IMG/VR virus record: IMGVR_UViG_3300032167_005167
Strand: one strand, 5' to 3'
Length of the DNA: 64,000 bases
DNA from: an uncultured virus (IMG/VR IMGVR_UViG_3300032167_005167)
Lineage: Duplodnaviria > Heunggongvirae > Uroviricota > Caudoviricetes
In this document: positions 37,915 through 44,322 of the stretch, in pieces
Layout: each line of letters opens with the position of its first letter
Numbering within the stretch: position 1 is the first letter of the stretch
The notes under the pieces: model-generated
What the model was told of the DNA's origin: nothing
Database searches by the model: none
What the model saw: the letters and a program-made list of their open reading frames with translations, nothing else
Position numbers and translations under genes: made by a program

Positions 37915-37986
37915 AAAACATCACTTGACTAATATGGGATTCAGAGTGAGTAATGTCATACCTGAATGAAAAGAGGAGGTTTGGCA

Positions 37987-38859
37987 ATGAATCTGAATAC
38001 CCAGCCAGCGAACCGGAAGGAAATGGTCAAGGCGATTGCTGATTTCACAACTCTGCAGGCAACCTACATGTTTACGCCGTCCTATGCATATCAAATTGGG
38101 CCGATCACGGTCAACCGTGATGGAACGATCACCTGCCACGACGAAGAGATGATTGAGAAGCTCAAACCGATGCTGATCGAACATGGATGGTTGAACGACA
38201 ATGGAGAGGAACAAATAATGGAGGAGGCCGAAGTGGCAGTGGAGATCCAGGAAGAAGAGAAACCTGTGGAGCGCCAGCTTCATGTGGAAGAGATGGATAT
38301 CATCATGCCGGTTGAAGGGTGGAGCATTGGTCAACTGACCAACCTTCTGAAGATCATGTTCAGCAAGCAAAAGCTGATTAACCGGATGTTTCAGAGTAAT
38401 AAGCCGCATGTTGAAGAGTCCTTTGTGAACGCGATTGTGGAAAACCCGCCTGAAACGGTGGATGATTTCGAAGCGAGGGTCCAGGCTGCCATTGAAGCAG
38501 GGTGCCTGCGTGGGCTGCGGATTGCGAACAGAGAGGTGGCCCTCACTGCTCCGTTCTGTGAGGAAGAGCCCACGCGCTGGGTGGCATACGGAACGCTGCT
38601 CAACGGGATTATGCAAAGCGCTCAGAAAGCGACGCGCATTACCTGCAAGCAGATTGTAGACCCAGAGAACGAAAAGTACCATGCCAATAGCTGGCTAATG
38701 CGGATGGGGCTTGGCGGCGCGGTGTACAAGCAGGCGAGAAAGACACTTCTTGGCCACCTGAATGGGTATGCTGCATTCAAGAGCGAAGCGGACATGCAGG
38801 CGCACAAAGCGAAGTACGCACAGCTTCGAAAGGAACTCAGGGAGGGAAGCCATGACTGA
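37987..38859 (+). CDS. conserved phage hypothetical protein (often labelled virulence-related)
   Basis: RKEMVKAI..PSYAYQIG; C-terminal NEKY..WLMRMG..RKTLL motif shared with the amidoligase C-terminus. Confidence 0.7.
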   Translation: MNLNTQPANRKEMVKAIADFTTLQATYMFTPSYAYQIGPITVNRDGTITCHDEEMIEKLKPMLIEHGWLNDNGEEQIMEEAEVAVEIQEEEKPVERQLHVEEMDIIMPVEGWSIGQLTNLLKIMFSKQKLINRMFQSNKPHVEESFVNAIVENPPETVDDFEARVQAAIEAGCLRGLRIANREVALTAPFCEEEPTRWVAYGTLLNGIMQSAQKATRITCKQIVDPENEKYHANSWLMRMGLGGAVYKQARKTLLGHLNGYAAFKSEADMQAHKAKYAQLRKELREGSHD

Positions 38860-39379
38860 GAAGATGAAAAGAAGGCTGCTCGATTTGAAAGCAGCTCAGG
38901 AAAAGGGCAGCGAAACAAGATGCCCCCGCTGCGGCGCAGAAACCATGAAGCATCCGGTACATACGAATGCATTGAGCCGACTAGCTGACATTTATATCTG
39001 TGACGCATGTGGCACAGCGGAAGCGATGCTGGCATTCATGAATCAGTCGCAACCTTTGACCTGCTGGTCGGCTTTTCAGCCGGAAAGACCGGCATCGGAT
39101 TTCAAAGCTCTGGATGTAAATGATGTGTTCATGAGAGTCTTGCAGGATCAGCTTGATACACTCACCGAGATCTGCGAGAAGTGTCGCCGTGAACCTGAGC
39201 ACGCAGACGAATATCGGCTGTTTGCATTTGAGAGCTGTCCCGGATTGACAGAACTGTGGACTGATCCATTTCAGGCTAATTATGACGCGAGGAATGGTAC
39301 GGTCATGGTTAGGTTCAGGGTTGGTGAAGATGGATCGCTGGAAACGCTCGTTCACTCAAAGGATAAAGAGAAGACTTGA
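38852..39379 (+). CDS. zinc-finger hypothetical protein
   Basis: CPRCG..NALSR..ICDACG. Confidence 0.7.
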   Translation: MTEKMKRRLLDLKAAQEKGSETRCPRCGAETMKHPVHTNALSRLADIYICDACGTAEAMLAFMNQSQPLTCWSAFQPERPASDFKALDVNDVFMRVLQDQLDTLTEICEKCRREPEHADEYRLFAFESCPGLTELWTDPFQANYDARNGTVMVRFRVGEDGSLETLVHSKDKEKT

Positions 39380-39508
39380 TTTGAAAGTGCGAGGCAGGGA
39401 TGCTTAGCGCTTTTCTTCTTGGCTTACGTTGCGCCACGTTGGCGCACGTTTGCCAAGAGGCATAGGGGTTGGGGGGAAGGGCCTTGCCGATTTGAAAGCG
39501 GACAAACG

Positions 39509-39537
39509 AAAAAAGGCCGCCTCCAGTTGGAAGCGGC
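39509..39537 (-). terminator. terminator of the minus-strand amidoligase/GGCT unit
   Basis: Minus strand GCCGCTTCCAACTGGAGGCGGC then T-run. Confidence 0.7.
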
Positions 39538-39553
39538 TGTGACCTAGGTCGAA

Positions 39554-40003
39554 TCATTTCTGGGCGAGCCGGAGACGCTTTCGGCTGCGTTCAAGAGCTG
39601 GCTTGAGTACCTGGTTGATTTCAGAGCCAAAGCCCAGTTGCTTGTAAGCATCCCTGATTCCGTGATAGTAGTTGGCCATGGGCGGCATGGGCCGGATCAG
39701 TTTCATGATGTAAACCATGCCCCAGAGCTCAGAACCATCATCCATCATGACCTTGCGCCTATGCTTGGTGTAGTAGGTAGGGCATCCTTCGTAGCGGTCG
39801 AGGCTGTGTTCGTCGGCTTCGTTGATTTCCCAAACCGCTACGGGGACCTTTGCGCCCATGGCTTGGCTTCGCTCAACCGTTGCGTGAAGGTAGAACTCCA
39901 GGCGGTGGTTGGGAAGGTAGCCTGTGCCGATCAGTTTAGCGTTTGGGCAGCGGTAAGCCATCTGTTCTTCGACCATGTTGGAACCGTATGCGATGTACTT
40001 CAT
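39554..40003 (-). CDS. gamma-glutamylcyclotransferase family protein
   Basis: YIAYGSNM..QMAYRCP, LDRYEGCP. Confidence 0.88.
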   Translation of the reverse strand: MKYIAYGSNMVEEQMAYRCPNAKLIGTGYLPNHRLEFYLHATVERSQAMGAKVPVAVWEINEADEHSLDRYEGCPTYYTKHRRKVMMDDGSELWGMVYIMKLIRPMPPMANYYHGIRDAYKQLGFGSEINQVLKPALERSRKRLRLAQK

Positions 40004-40032
40004 GTTGTTTCCTCCTTGATTTGAAAGCTGTG

Positions 40033-40263
40033 TTACCAAGCCTTGTTGTTGATGCAGAAGCCGTCATCACCGTACGCCTGCATGATTGATTTGAAAGCAT
40101 TGCAGGAGTCGGCAAAAAGCTCATCGTCCTGAGCGATGTCCATCAGTTCATTATCATCGGCTTCATCAGGGACAATGTTGATCCATTCATAGTAAGCGTC
40201 CTCGTTGTTCATGGTGCGTACGATGGTGTGCATGGCCTTCATGAGTTTGTAGCGTTCGAGCAT
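40033..40263 (-). CDS. small acidic hypothetical protein
   Basis: RBS AAAGGAGG; own promoter at 40283-40321. Confidence 0.7.
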   Translation of the reverse strand: MLERYKLMKAMHTIVRTMNNEDAYYEWINIVPDEADDNELMDIAQDDELFADSCNAFKSIMQAYGDDGFCINNKAW

Positions 40264-40358
40264 GGGTGACCTCCTTTAAGATGGTATGCTATACATCACT
40301 CTGCAGGGCAATAAAGTCAAGCCCGTGATGAAAGCAATTTGATTTGGAAGCTGTGGCT

Positions 40359-40424
40359 CCCGCGACCAACACCGCGCTTGGCGGTGAGGGTTTCGGCCTG
40401 TGCCGGAGGCCATCGTCAGGCGGG
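40359..40424 (-). ncRNA. type I hammerhead ribozyme (HHR-2)
   Basis: Minus strand CCCGC CUGACGA U GGCCU-CCGGCAC-AGGCC GAAA CC..CACCGC-CAAGC-GCGGUG..GG UC^GCGGG: full core and three stems. Confidence 0.88.
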
Positions 40425-40634
40425 TTGATCGAGGAACTCAACCGGGTATGCGCTCTCTGTATCCCGGTGAAGAGTTACTAGCCAACGAGCTTTCTTCTGG
40501 AGCTCAGGCAAGGCGCGGCGCACACGTTTTTCGCCGTCGACCTTGCTGAGGATGATGTGGTTAAGGTATTCGAAAGCGGCATCGTCGAACCAGTCGAAGA
40601 TGTCCATGCAGGTTTCGAAGTCGAAGTTCTCCAT
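40416..40634 (-). CDS. 72-aa hypothetical protein; stop codon lies inside the HHR-2 core
   Basis: RBS CAAGGAGGAAC; MENFDFET. Confidence 0.65.
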   Translation of the reverse strand: MENFDFETCMDIFDWFDDAAFEYLNHIILSKVDGEKRVRRALPELQKKARWLVTLHRDTESAYPVEFLDQPA

Positions 40635-40650
40635 GTGCGTTCCTCCTTGC

Positions 40651-40851
40651 TTAGTTTGGTGTGTCCTTGAAAAACTCCAGCGCCTGTTCAAGCAGCTCGT
40701 CAAGCCTGCGCAGGTCACCAACCTGTGCCCAGTTTGCGCTGTCTTCGCTCTGAGCCCTGCGCTCCAATCGGCCTGCGAGCTCGAGGAGTGAGTCCTCGAT
40801 GCTCTCGCGAAGACGAGCGTGTGCGTATGCGGCGGTCTCGAAGTATTCCAT
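40651..40851 (-). CDS. 66-aa helical hypothetical protein
   Basis: RBS CAAGGAGGAAC; NWAQVGDL. Confidence 0.7.
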   Translation of the reverse strand: MEYFETAAYAHARLRESIEDSLLELAGRLERRAQSEDSANWAQVGDLRRLDELLEQALEFFKDTPN

Positions 40852-40880
40852 TGTTGTTCCTCCTTGCTTGATTTGGAAGC

Positions 40881-41177
40881 TTACCAGATACCGCCCCGGC
40901 GCTGAAGGTTTGCGCGGCGGTCGAGGTCGAGCAGTACCCGGGCGATGTCCTCAGGGGTAAGGTTTGCTCCGTCGTAGTAGTCGCTGGCATAGTCGATGAA
41001 CTCGCCGTTGCGGAAGATCATCCAGTAGTCCCGTTCGCGGCCCTTATGTCTGGCCCAGTGGTATTCGGTTTCGTCGTAGGGGTGAATGCTCTCAACGTAG
41101 GTGTGGCCATTCAGGTAGGTTTTCGCGCAGAAGGTCTGGCCGTCGACTTTGAATGTGCGGTAGGTGTAGTTTTCCAT
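40881..41177 (-). CDS. 98-aa hypothetical protein
   Basis: RBS CAAGGAGGAAC; MENYTY. Confidence 0.7.
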   Translation of the reverse strand: MENYTYRTFKVDGQTFCAKTYLNGHTYVESIHPYDETEYHWARHKGRERDYWMIFRNGEFIDYASDYYDGANLTPEDIARVLLDLDRRANLQRRGGIW

Positions 41178-41213
41178 GGGTGTTCCTCCTTGCTTGATTT
41201 GGAAGCTTGGCTT

Positions 41214-41266
41214 CCCGCGACGCTTCGGCGTTTCGGCCCGGAGCCACCGGGCCATCATCAGGCGGG
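41214..41266 (-). ncRNA. type I hammerhead ribozyme (HHR-1)
   Basis: Minus strand CCCGC CUGAUGA U GGCCCGG-UGGCU-CCGGGCC GAAA CGC-CGAA-GCG UC^GCGGG; loop II UGGCU is complementary to the 3' tail AGCCA. Confidence 0.92.
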
Positions 41267-41286
41267 GTCTTGATTTGAAAGCTGTG

Positions 41287-42168
41287 TCAGGAGGCCTGCC
41301 GCCAGGCTGCGTTGCCGGGCAGTTTCTTGAGCAGGTGTCCTCGTGCGGTCTTGAACTCGTCGCCGATCAGGCCGAGGCGAAGGAGCCAGCAGCGGAAGGT
41401 GTACTTCGGGTTGTCCGTCTGAGGCCTAGCCGGGCTGGCCGCGTTTGTCGTGAGCGCCTTCGCGCTGATGGCAAGGCAAAGCTGAATGTAGGCCTTAATC
41501 TCGCCTGCGTGCAGTGTGCCGTTGAAGGCTCGGAACTCAATGGTGTGCGCCGGGCGTTCCTCGGAGAAGGTTGCATGCAGGTTGAGCAGGTGGTAGCGGC
41601 TGTTGTCGTAATGGTCGTGCGCGTTCTCGTGCCAGTTGGTGTACCCGCCCTGGCTGAGGTACCAAACCCTGGCGAAGTCTTCCATGGTTCTCGGCTTGAG
41701 GCGGTTGACCTCACGCAGGAAGTTGGGGTCGACCGGTCTGCACCAGCGCTGGCGGCGGTTCGGGGAAATGCCCAGCGACATGGTGAGGAGGTCTTCCTTT
41801 GCGTTGACAATGTTCACCAGGCGGCGCAGGCTTTGCGGCGTGTGCTGGCCGAGACCAACGTGAATGTGAATGCCGCAGGTGCTGTCGACCTTCGCGCCTG
41901 CAGCGCGAATGTGCCGGATGACTTCCTGCACCATCGCAATGTCTTCCCAGCGGCACACCGGGCTGACCACCTCGGCGGCAGGGTCCGTCACCGAGCCGTC
42001 GCGCTCGACAACCCACTTGCGTCCGTCGGGCATGGGAATGTGCCAGTCGCCTAAGTGGTGGCCTACGTAGCGGGCCTGCGTGCCGAAATAGGCTGCGATC
42101 GCGCGAGCTGTGCCTTCGCGGCCCAAGCCCGTGGTTTCGACTTCGATACCGAAGGTTTGGTTTTTCAT
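41287..42168 (-). CDS. amidoligase (COOH-NH2 ligase type 2) family protein
   Basis: FGIEVE, DGSV, EVVSP, CGIHIHV, RYHLLN, TIEFR. Confidence 0.9.
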   Translation of the reverse strand: MKNQTFGIEVETTGLGREGTARAIAAYFGTQARYVGHHLGDWHIPMPDGRKWVVERDGSVTDPAAEVVSPVCRWEDIAMVQEVIRHIRAAGAKVDSTCGIHIHVGLGQHTPQSLRRLVNIVNAKEDLLTMSLGISPNRRQRWCRPVDPNFLREVNRLKPRTMEDFARVWYLSQGGYTNWHENAHDHYDNSRYHLLNLHATFSEERPAHTIEFRAFNGTLHAGEIKAYIQLCLAISAKALTTNAASPARPQTDNPKYTFRCWLLRLGLIGDEFKTARGHLLKKLPGNAAWRQAS

Positions 42169-42896
42169 GGGCGTTCCTTTCGGCCCGGCGGCTTTTCCCA
42201 CCCGCGGCCCGGCTCGTGGGGTGTGCCCCGCGCCGTGACACATTCATCACTCCGTGGGCCGGAAAAAGCAACCCGACCGAACCACCAAGTGTTTCGGGGG
42301 AAAACAGCTCTTATTCGACAAAGAAAAGCAAACGGAAAAAGCCTACCTATTGGGCGCGTACGCGTACGCGAGGGGTTCGGGATCAAGCTCTGGGGAAGTG
42401 AACAGGGTTTGTGTAGCTTTCGGTAACCGAGCGAGCTGTTTTTCCCCCGATCAGTCCGCCGCCTCGTGCCGAGCAAACGCCCGGTTTGTGCTTCTGCGCG
42501 CCCAACTGCCGCCGTCCGGACGAGGTTTTGCCGGAGGGTTTGGTTCGAAACCGCCCCCGAAAGGTTTGAAACCGACCGGAAACCGCGACAGCGGCGCGAT
42601 TTGGGCCCACGTTGCCCCCGGAAGCCGGCTTGGCCCGGTTCCCCGGCGGCCCGTGAAAAGCCTGGTGTGGCCCCAACGTGGGCCCGACGAGGCCCCGCGT
42701 CCCGCGAACGCGCCACGAGCTACGACATTTTCGCTGCGCTGTCCCGCGTGACGTCCGTTGCGTCGCCGCCTGCCCGGCAGAAGGCGTCGGCTGCCGCCGT
42801 TGGGGCGTGTGCCTTGCGCAGCGGTTGCTCCGCCCGAAACTAGCCGGGCCTCGCGTGCGGTCAGCCTTGCGGTGTGCCCCGGTGACGGGTTGTGCT

Positions 42897-42974
42897 GGGG
42901 GGAGGGGGGATCAAATCTCTGGGAGCTATTTCTAGGAGACCGCGCGCCCCTCTCGTGTGAATTTTCGCGAAATT
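42897..42974. other. putative cos/packaging-site region
   Basis: G-run, TCAAATCTCT, GACCGCGCGCCCC and the imperfect palindrome AATTTTCGCGAAATT upstream of the methylase/terminase genes; resembles HK97-like clostridial phage ends (recalled, not searched). Confidence 0.45.
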
Positions 42975-43065
42975 GGGGCCCGGGGGTTTTGGGGCCAAAA
43001 AAGAAAAATCAGCCGTCCGATGGGGCAGCTTTTTCGATATCAGCAAACATGTAAGGAGGTATAAC

Positions 43066-44322
43066 GTGAACACTCAAATGAATCTGCAGCGCATTCCGGT
43101 TGAGAAGCTGAAGCCTGCAAAGTACAACCCGCGCAAAGACCTCAAACCCGGTGATGCGGCGTATGAGAAGATCAAAAAGAGCCTTCATACCTACGGGTAT
43201 GTTGATCCGGTGATCTGGAACGAGGTCACTGGCAATATTGTCGGCGGCCATCAGCGATTCAAGGTGCTGACCGCTGAAGGAGCAAAAGAGATCGACTGTG
43301 TAGTGGTCCATATTGAGGATCCCCAGGATGAGAAGGCGCTCAACATCGCACTTAACAAGGCAGTGGGTGAGTGGGAGCCGGTGGCGCTTGCTGAGCTGCT
43401 GCAGGACCTGCAGTCTTCTGGCTATGAGATGGATTGCACAGGCTTCGATGCAGCGGAGATCGATGATCTGTTTTCCAAGGTTCACGACAAGGATGTCAAG
43501 GACGATGATTGCGAGATCAATCCTGATGAAGTAAAGCCTTTTGTTGAACCCGGCGATGTTTGGATGCTAGGCAAGCATCGAATGGTCTGCGGTGATTCTA
43601 CCAAAGCGGAAGATGTCAACCTCCTCATGGATGGTGTGAAGGCGAATCTCGTTGTTACCGATCCGCCTTACAATGTTGCGTACCAAAGTGCAGACGGAAA
43701 GTCGATCCAGAACGACAGTATGGGCGATGAGGCTTTTTACGAGTTTCTTCTAGCAGCGTTCAAGAATATGGCTAGCCATATGGCAGAAGGTGGTAGTGCC
43801 TATATTTTCCATGCGGATACTGAAGGCTTGAATTTCAGACGAGCTTTCAAAGAAGCAGGGTTTCACATCAGCGGCGTGTGCATCTGGGTGAAGAACTCTC
43901 TGGTACTGGGCAGGTCGCCTTATCAGTGGCAGCATGAACCTGTACTATATGGCTGGCTGCCTAACGGCAAGCACAAGTGGTTTTCTGATCGTAAGCAGTC
44001 CACCATCTGGAACTTCGATAAACCCAAAAAGAATGGCGATCATCCTACGATGAAACCTATTCCTCTTGTGGCCTACCCCATTAAGAATAGCTCTGCACCC
44101 AATGCTGTGGTGCTCGACCTGTTTGGTGGCTCCGGCAGCACGCTCATTGCCTGCGAAGAGACAGATCGTATCTGTCGCACGATGGAACTGGATCCCAAGT
44201 ATGCCAGCGTGATCGTTCAGCGATATGCAGCTTATAAGGAAGGGACCCAAGATATCAAGGTTCTTCGACATGGAAAAGAAATGGCGTTTGAAGATGTAGC
44301 AGAAGCGATTATGGATGATTGA
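43066..44322 (+). CDS. ParB-like domain + N4/N6 DNA methyltransferase
   Basis: YNPR, VGGHQR; TDPPY; HPTMKP; DLFGGSG. Confidence 0.9.
   Translation: MNTQMNLQRIPVEKLKPAKYNPRKDLKPGDAAYEKIKKSLHTYGYVDPVIWNEVTGNIVGGHQRFKVLTAEGAKEIDCVVVHIEDPQDEKALNIALNKAVGEWEPVALAELLQDLQSSGYEMDCTGFDAAEIDDLFSKVHDKDVKDDDCEINPDEVKPFVEPGDVWMLGKHRMVCGDSTKAEDVNLLMDGVKANLVVTDPPYNVAYQSADGKSIQNDSMGDEAFYEFLLAAFKNMASHMAEGGSAYIFHADTEGLNFRRAFKEAGFHISGVCIWVKNSLVLGRSPYQWQHEPVLYGWLPNGKHKWFSDRKQSTIWNFDKPKKNGDHPTMKPIPLVAYPIKNSSAPNAVVLDLFGGSGSTLIACEETDRICRTMELDPKYASVIVQRYAAYKEGTQDIKVLRHGKEMAFEDVAEAIMDD

Follow-up and report, generated by a model that had tools for sequence, protein, structure and literature searches.

Hammerhead motifs in an accessory operon of a gut phage

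We analysed a stretch of DNA of 64,000 nucleotides (nt), referred to below as the window, from the uncultured virus IMGVR_UViG_3300032167_005167 of the IMG/VR collection, and concentrated on two short RNA motifs of its minus strand, HHR-1 and HHR-2, whose identification as type I hammerhead ribozymes is well supported by the predicted core and topology and by covariation in relatives. Both motifs occupy intergenic spaces of an accessory operon, which on the minus strand runs in the order amidoligase gene, HHR-1, three small open reading frames (ORF1, ORF2 and ORF3), HHR-2, an ORF of 76 amino acids (aa), a gamma-glutamyl cyclotransferase gene and a terminator-like hairpin (Table 1). BLAST comparison with phage records relates the window to Candidatus Heliusvirales phages of Christensenellales and Oscillospiraceae from human faeces, and judged by these relationships it is a Heliusvirales-like phage of gut Clostridia.

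In both copies the elements follow each other in the order stem I, core, stem II hairpin, GAAA, stem III hairpin, GUC and the returning strand of stem I, with stem I open and stems II and III closed by loops, which is the type I topology. The core signature is complete in both (CUGAYGA, GAAA, the A-U closing pair and GUC), with an additional U inserted between A9 and G10.1. Stem I consists of five pairs and is identical in the two copies, whereas stems II and III differ in sequence and yet remain paired. A tertiary contact is provided by a predicted pseudoknot of the form GGN:N'CC between loop II and the 3' tail, with a complementarity of 5 base pairs (bp) in HHR-1 (UGGCU:AGCCA) and 3 bp in HHR-2 (GGC:GCC). 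The minimum-energy folds of both motifs are three-way junctions, with z-scores that, taken alone, are unremarkable (-1.97 and -1.01). The predicted cuts are 855 nt apart. The initial annotation had read the same features from the letters of the window: a CUGANGA/GAAA/GUC core with an extra U after A9, a shared CCCGC/GCGGG stem I, divergent but paired stems II and III, the loop II-tail complementarity, the two cut positions with their spacing, and three ORFs of 98, 66 and 72 aa, all with the ribosome binding site (RBS) CAAGGAGGAAC and an ME(N/Y) start. All these descriptive claims proved correct on the minus strand, the cut positions as sequence arithmetic, and its assignment of the pair to type I hammerheads is likewise supported by the core, the topology and the covariation described below.

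Table 1. Positions of the ribozyme elements, genes and other features of the operon in the window.
Feature	Position	Strand	Description or basis
Amidoligase gene	41287..42243	minus	PF12224 5.3e-55; phrog_2443 9.5e-91; upstream of HHR-1
HHR-1, type I hammerhead	41208..41266	minus	core, pairing, covariation in relatives
HHR-1 stem I	41266-41262 / 41218-41214	minus	CCCGC / GCGGG
HHR-1 core	41261-41255	minus	CUGAUGA; inserted U 41254
HHR-1 stem II and loop II	41253-41235	minus	GGCCCGG/CCGGGCC; loop UGGCU 41246-41242
HHR-1 GAAA	41234-41231	minus	
HHR-1 stem III	41231-41220	minus	ACGC/GCGU closed by loop CGAA
HHR-1 GUC	41221-41219	minus	C17 = 41219; predicted cut 41219/41218
HHR-1 pseudoknot tail	41212-41208	minus	AGCCA
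Hairpin at 5' end of HHR-1 3' product	41201..41215	minus	GGAAGC-CAA-GCUUCC; minimum-energy fold, first 30 nt
ORF1	40881..41177	minus	98 aa, starts MEN; RBS CAAGGAGGAAC; conserved small phage protein
ORF2	40651..40851	minus	66 aa, acidic, probably helical, starts MEY; RBS CAAGGAGGAAC
ORF3	40416..40634	minus	72 aa, starts MEN; RBS CAAGGAGGAAC
HHR-2, type I hammerhead	40354..40424	minus	core, pairing
HHR-2 stem I	40424-40420 / 40363-40359	minus	CCCGC / GCGGG
HHR-2 core	40419-40413	minus	CUGACGA; inserted U 40412
HHR-2 stem II and loop II	40411-40395	minus	GGCCU/AGGCC; loop CCGGCAC
HHR-2 GAAA	40394-40391	minus	
HHR-2 stem III	40391-40365	minus	long, with 2x2 internal loop
HHR-2 GUC	40366-40364	minus	C17 = 40364; predicted cut 40364/40363
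HHR-2 tail	40358-40354	minus	AGCCA
Hairpin at 5' end of HHR-2 3' product	40346..40361	minus	GGGAGC-CACA-GCUUCC
Leader motif, six copies	span 40016..41282	minus	GCUUYCAAAUCAA, 0-1 mismatch; 41282-41270, 41206-41194, 40880-40868, 40351-40339, 40098-40086 (inside the 76-aa ORF), 40028-40016
76-aa ORF	40033..40263	minus	acidic; first gene 3' of HHR-2; leader about 100 nt
Gamma-glutamyl cyclotransferase gene (AIG2-like)	39554..40003	minus	PF06094 9.5e-11; phrog_2520 3.5e-30; last operon gene
Intrinsic-terminator-like hairpin	39516..39537	minus	9 pairs (7 G-C), then U run

A large subfamily with covarying stems

The search for relatives used a pattern that fixes the core, C11.1, C15.2, GUC and most of stem I, and leaves stems II and III free. 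It matches about 490 stored stretches in viral contigs and about 250 in bacterial genome contigs, where the matches often form arrays at 0.5-1.5 kb spacing and come mostly from Clostridia and other Bacillota, with some from cyanobacterial and other assemblies. Family statistics were drawn from 124 loci out of the about 490 viral stretches, and the bacterial listing covers 153 of the about 250 stretches. The 108 unique viral matches, to which no pairing filter was applied, show strong pairing in the stems that the pattern leaves free: at least four contiguous stem II pairs counted from the core are present in 92 of them (7.2% after shuffling of the interior), and at least four stem III pairs in 95 (15.7% after shuffling). 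The third pair of stem III is C-G in 56 matches, G-C in 39, A-U in 9 and U-A in 3, with one mismatch, and the inserted U is present in 84.

In the alignment of the 102 members that pass a pairing descriptor (the core plus at least four stem II, three stem III and four stem I pairs), which is by this choice pre-filtered for pairing near the core, so that only the figures from the 108 matches are free of this bias, 93.7% of cells are paired against 76.3% after shuffling. Double-sided changes occur in 14 of the 17 pairs, and the covariation score of 0.384 compares with 0.112 in shuffled alignments and was reached by none of 500 shuffles. When partner columns were slid by 1-3 positions as a control, 32-44% of cells were paired. 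With the pseudoknot anchored on the GG of loop II and the CC of the tail, the remaining N:N' position is paired in 83 of 96 cases (C-G 61, U-A 19, A-U 2, U-G 1), and the longest loop-tail complement has a mean length of 3.80 bp, compared with 3.46 bp for permuted partners (maximum 3.62 in 200 permutations). The arrangement of three helices around the core is thus supported by compensatory changes. Judged by sequence and pairing, HHR-1 and HHR-2 belong to a large hammerhead subfamily of phages and prophages that is characterised by a five-pair stem I, usually an inserted U, and a pseudoknot between loop II and the tail.

The related PV036419 carries two copies of the motif and PV036454 three, all between genes of the same operon, and in some of these copies G10.1 follows A9 directly. 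Over 80 related loci, 58 have a single copy within about 1.5 kb and 22 have 2-5 copies within about 3 kb. The nearest related record, G001, is a 65%-complete fragment without a copy of the motif and is hence uninformative. The minus strand of the related locus L003 contains matches to RAGATH-5 (409-465, 53.2 bits), twister-sister (2046-2129, 74 bits) and type II hammerhead (2319-2386, 53.9 bits), and with the type I copy on the same strand (1491-1561) this amounts to four self-cleaving or ribozyme-associated motifs within 2 kb. Contigs labelled as cyanobacterial (Chamaesiphon, Oscillatoriales, Spirulina, Leptothoe, Phormidium, Allocoleopsis) and a few from Dehalococcoidia also match the pattern, as pattern matches with unscreened pairing (L139, L171, L175, L192, L193, L195, L202, L203, L205 and L211), which suggests that this subfamily, or else a look-alike sharing its stem I, extends beyond gut Clostridia.

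On both strands of the whole window the descriptor matches exactly twice, at HHR-1 and HHR-2, while 200 first-order Markov simulations of the window gave a mean of 0.01 matches, a maximum of one and never two. A covariance model built from the 102-member alignment (R1) assigns 67.7 bits to HHR-1 and 61.9 bits to HHR-2, scores that are high by construction since both motifs are rows of the seed alignment; the next best site of the window reaches 11.2 bits. Run over the whole window with filters off, the model finds no copy beyond these two.

Genes of the operon and its surroundings

The true start of the amidoligase gene is probably the ATG at 42168, since the Pfam match begins at residue 27; its stop codon lies 20 nt upstream of HHR-1, so the gene and the ribozyme do not overlap. 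ORF1 has homologues of 33-41% identity by local tblastn in L001, L043 and L024, and by coordinates each of them starts just 3' of a hammerhead copy; against Pfam the only match of ORF1 is DUF4430 at 18.8 bits, below the cut-off of 23.8, and PHROGs gives none. A homologue of ORF3 in L028, 52% identical, ends where a hammerhead copy begins. ORF2 has no homologue among the related loci compared, and ORF2, ORF3 and the 76-aa ORF are all without a match in Pfam or PHROGs. Small proteins of this kind are typical of the family: the ORF that follows the ribozyme has a median length of 77 aa (72 complete ones), and 67 of 78 such ORFs have no Pfam match, the rest being YodL-like (5), DUF932 (2), DUF4314, HTH_17 and DUF6908. 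In 63 of the 102 members the predicted cleavage site lies 30-49 nt ahead of a Shine-Dalgarno sequence and start codon.

The hairpin downstream of the cyclotransferase gene is probably the 3' end of the operon transcript. Just beyond the operon, on the opposite strand, lie a ParB-methyltransferase gene and the terminase genes. Between the ParB-methyltransferase and amidoligase genes there is a region of about 730 nt (42244-42972) with 61-69% G+C and no convincing ORF; the corresponding interval of relatives is only about 200 nt long. Similar DNA was not found in the phage collection, and Rfam gave no match at E<=1; the region could be a decayed gene or the leader of the operon. Another amidoligase-like gene, a divergent one (37966-38859; phrog_2443 4.6e-30, without a Pfam match), runs on the plus strand towards the ribozyme operon and is adjoined by a gene for a zinc-ribbon protein (38762-39379).

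Predicted post-cleavage hairpin, leader motif and stop codon in the core

The 3' product of each predicted cut begins with a hairpin, and that of HHR-1 overlaps two bases of stem I together with the pseudoknot tail. This is a family-wide property: in the first 30 nt of the 3' product, a 5'-proximal hairpin that absorbs the stem I strand, and often also the pseudoknot tail, is predicted in 88 of the 102 members versus 51.6 expected by shuffling, and the mean fold energy is -8.05 kcal/mol as compared to -4.83 kcal/mol for shuffled sequences. There are two sequence solutions for the hairpin, GCGG...CCGC in some lineages and GGRAGC...GCUUCC in this window. We infer that this hairpin arises once the RNA is cut, that it works against re-ligation and that it equips the downstream message with a structured 5' end beside the RBS.

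The 3' arm of the hairpin, GCUUCC, is at the same time part of a leader motif, GCUUYCAAAUCAA, whose longer form is (CAC)AGCUUYCAAAUCAA. With up to two mismatches it occurs 14 times in the window, against 2.95 +/- 1.78 expected, and all six copies with 0-1 mismatch fall within 40016-41282. Wherever a gene follows, the motif stands directly 5' of the RBS, and it is found in the leaders of relatives as well. Its AAAUCAA part could be a standby, regulator or processing site. Because the leader motif flanks HHR-1 on both sides, we also considered the ribozyme as a mobile insertion with target-site duplication. This idea was rejected: with 45 nt compared on each side, a shared word of at least 9 nt occurs in 3 of the 102 members versus 0.94 by permutation (maximum 5).

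A further connection between ribozyme and genes is seen at HHR-2, where ORF3 terminates at the core UGA (40418-40416, U4-G5-A6). It serves as the upstream stop codon likewise at the copies of three relatives, and an open stretch of 40 codons or more in the frame that reads this UGA is present in 56 of 101 members, compared with 32 and 39 for the other two frames.

Probable processing of a polycistronic message

What, then, would be the purpose of two predicted self-cleaving motifs placed around three small genes? The motif, its conservation and covariation and the gene context are direct observations, and very likely, in our opinion, the hammerheads serve to split a polycistronic phage mRNA into separate messages. 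In such a mechanism the operon would be transcribed as one polycistronic RNA, and each ribozyme would fold as it emerges and cut after its GUC. The upstream piece would retain its stop codon and finish with the compact fold of stems II and III, bearing a 2',3'-cyclic phosphate, while the downstream piece would start with a 5'-OH, and its first 15-18 nt would refold into the hairpin that absorbs the stem I strand and the pseudoknot tail. This hairpin would immediately precede the leader motif and the RBS. Stability and translation of the message would in consequence become independent of the neighbouring cassette, making the elements a natural counterpart of engineered ribozyme insulators. Co-transcription of the operon, cleavage in vivo and the stabilising or insulating effect are thus all presumed steps of this mechanism. 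If both ribozymes cut one transcript, it follows arithmetically that an 855-nt RNA with three ORFs is excised.

Several points weigh against this picture. A scan of 39300-43100 for sigma-70-type promoters found none, and RNA coverage amounts to a single contig of 156 nt (39628-39783) from one metatranscriptome run, which lies outside the ribozymes. The alignment that carries most of the covariation figures is pre-filtered, as noted above. The hairpin predicted for the 3' product might just as well compete with the catalytically active structure and so slow down cleavage. The curated models are negative as well: Rfam 15 at gathering score reports no hammerhead and no other ribozyme class in the whole window, nor does it report a hammerhead at E<=10 in slices of 2 kb, 91 nt and 101 nt, so the Rfam hammerhead search suggested in the initial annotation gave no match and neither copy reaches the gathering score of RF00163 (clan CL00010). 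On two related phage genomes RF00163 responds only to copies without the inserted U, with 15.8 and 15.7 bits where the cut-off is 34; in 20 related loci no central copy attains the gathering score of any Rfam family, although the same run does match its type II hammerhead and twister-sister models in L003. We set the Rfam negative aside as counter-evidence because the relatives covary strongly and RF00163 scores these relatives poorly too. The curated Rfam models do not cover this hammerhead subfamily, and they miss its inserted-U members because of the one-base insertion in the core.

Alternative explanations

That the two motifs are chance resemblances or decayed, inactive copies appears very improbable. 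Such a view could invoke the missing Rfam match, the insertion in the core and the weak z-scores of the single-sequence folds, but the descriptor matches are two where 0.01 are expected per window, all catalytic positions are intact, and the inserted U belongs to a majority of the unique members, whose stems covary.

The initial annotation had drawn an analogy with retrozymes and viroid-like circles, in which the released piece becomes a ring. The 5' GCGGG of the 855-nt piece would pair with the CCCGC of HHR-2 and the ends would be ligated into a circular three-gene RNA, and this ligation, itself improbable, would proceed either by the reverse reaction of the hammerhead or by a host ligase of the RtcB type. 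Hammerhead cleavage leaves 5'-OH and cyclic-phosphate ends, as used by RtcB-type ligases, and these are the ends that the circle would need. With stem I identical in HHR-1 and HHR-2 the chimeric junction would be a complete hammerhead, whose loop II, from HHR-2, keeps 3 bp of complementarity to the tail of HHR-1, and the 22 related loci with 2-5 copies are also in line with such a scheme. The rebuilding of a hammerhead from joined ends is true as sequence logic, and it is so for any two members with a common stem I; the uniformity of stem I was dropped as an argument for end-joining since the search pattern fixed most of this stem. The analogy itself found no support. Retrozymes and viroid-like circles are marked by long direct repeats around a non-coding insert and by high self-complementarity, whereas the insert here is coding, with three ORFs each provided with an RBS, and its flanks lack long repeats (the longest word shared by the 45 nt upstream and downstream in the window is 9 nt). 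The 855-nt RNA folds at -277.7 kcal/mol compared with -271.3 +/- 5.9 kcal/mol in 20 shuffles (z -1.08), three of which were as good. Moreover, the conserved hairpin ties up the 3' product at its 5' end, and 58 of the 80 related loci have only one copy within reach. Perreault et al. (2011; PMC3088659), who raised the idea of circles or splicing for clustered prophage hammerheads, state, with data not shown, that a search of theirs for circular or spliced products gave none. We therefore regard circularisation as quite improbable. If it did take place, one would have to see the ribozyme arrays in phages and prophages of Clostridia as factories for circular messages. A circular phage mRNA that can be translated would be the boldest reading of the locus, a long shot in our view; a less radical one would be that ribozyme, 5' hairpin and leader motif form a natural portable insulator for context-free swaps of cassettes.

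Viewed at the DNA level, the ribozymes resemble seams in a mosaic gene cassette, with a step in G+C content, depth peaks and contig joints. One could hence propose that the elements of roughly 60 nt act primarily as homology for cassette swaps, with ribozyme activity being secondary or vestigial. G+C is 55-69% across 42970-40360 and about 49% just downstream of HHR-2; contig depth, in three runs of which the library type is not on record, peaks on the bins of HHR-1 (38-79) and HHR-2; in the same runs the borders of the ribozymes, or positions next to them, coincide with contig joints or loose ends (41266, 41225, 41194, 40425 and 40414); and the gene content between copies varies among relatives. 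However, stems II and III and the pseudoknot change in sequence and yet stay paired around an invariant core, which argues for selection on the RNA fold and not on DNA identity. We regard a mainly DNA-level boundary function as quite improbable, but the two roles are not exclusive. The overlap of core and stop codon suggests another possibility, in which cutting reports on the translation of the upstream gene or is gated by it: a terminating ribosome would block folding because the upstream stop codon lies inside the catalytic core. The arrangement of ORF3 and HHR-2, its recurrence at three relatives' copies and the excess of open frames through the core UGA are in line with such conditional cleavage. 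Nevertheless, the frame enrichment is modest for G+C-rich DNA, HHR-1 overlaps no gene, as the amidoligase ends upstream of it, and co-transcriptional folding of the ribozyme may precede the first ribosome, so we find coupling to translation unlikely as the main function.

Comparison with known hammerhead systems

The processing of polycistronic phage mRNA, which we prefer, has been put forward before. Perreault et al. (2011, PLoS Comput Biol; PMC3088659) describe clustered hammerheads that flank genes in prophages and proposed that they cut long phage transcripts into gene-length mRNAs; they report cleavage of polycistronic constructs of about 2 kb in vitro and of one arrangement in vivo in E. 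coli, pseudoknots in about 40% of the representatives, and tandem arrangements in Clostridium scindens, Azorhizobium caulinodans and Agrobacterium tumefaciens. De la Pena et al. (2017; PMC6155905) mention hammerheads that flank small non-conserved ORFs, and Weinberg et al. (2019; PMC6765202) give polycistronic processing as a suggested role; both of these later reviews treat that role as still unproven. The operon described here resembles the prophage clusters of PMC3088659 in that several hammerheads flank single genes or short blocks in phage-derived DNA and in that a pseudoknot in the region of stems I and II replaces loop-loop contacts. It differs from them, as far as they are described in that paper, in its Heliusvirales-like host phage, in the U after A9 in most members and in scores below the Rfam thresholds. 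Neither the hairpin that begins the 3' product nor the stop codon in the core was met in the passages of Perreault et al. (2011) consulted here, in which no dedicated search for them was made, and the exact subfamily may already be contained in the supplementary alignments of that paper.

With RF00163 (Hammerhead_1) the two motifs share the topology, with stem I open and stems II and III closed, the core and the GUC triplet; unlike members of that family, the window copies go unreported by its model, and relatives' copies without the inserted U fall far short of its cut-off. An additional nucleotide in the core has a parallel in plant viroids: De la Pena and Flores are said to have described, in J Biol Chem in 2001, a viroid hammerhead with an extra core nucleotide, reportedly an A between A9 and G10.1. 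That ribozyme is of type III. The tolerance of an additional core nucleotide appears to be common to both cases, while here the U is the majority state of a large phage subfamily of type I. Retrozymes and viroid-like circles (Cervera et al., 2016, PMC4918200; de la Pena et al., 2020, PMC7761336) are similar insofar as two hammerheads bracket an RNA and joining its ends restores a ribozyme. As those papers present them, and partly as a matter of general knowledge, they are eukaryotic, non-coding, highly self-paired and located inside long direct repeats, whereas the window has three genes with RBS, no excess structure and no long repeats.

There is also an engineered parallel. In RiboJ, a synthetic insulator derived from a plant satellite RNA ribozyme, a hairpin stands between the hammerhead and the RBS, directly ahead of the latter, so that the downstream message has a defined 5' end whatever the upstream context. 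The elements of the window have the same succession of hammerhead and hairpin just 5' of the RBS; they differ in being natural, of type I and equipped with a predicted pseudoknot, and any insulating effect is here deduced from the layout.

Significance

Hammerheads that flank small genes of obscure function in prophages have been known since 2011, and the find, while correct, is of this known kind and opens no new category. It adds a clean, well-bounded example in a named lineage of gut phages. New is the membership of the two ribozymes in a large inserted-U subfamily that Rfam misses, with its about 490 viral and about 250 bacterial stretches. The 5' hairpin and the stop codon within the core are family-wide features and offer handles for testing the purpose of the cut, which may be stabilisation of the message, insulation of its translation or coupling to translation.

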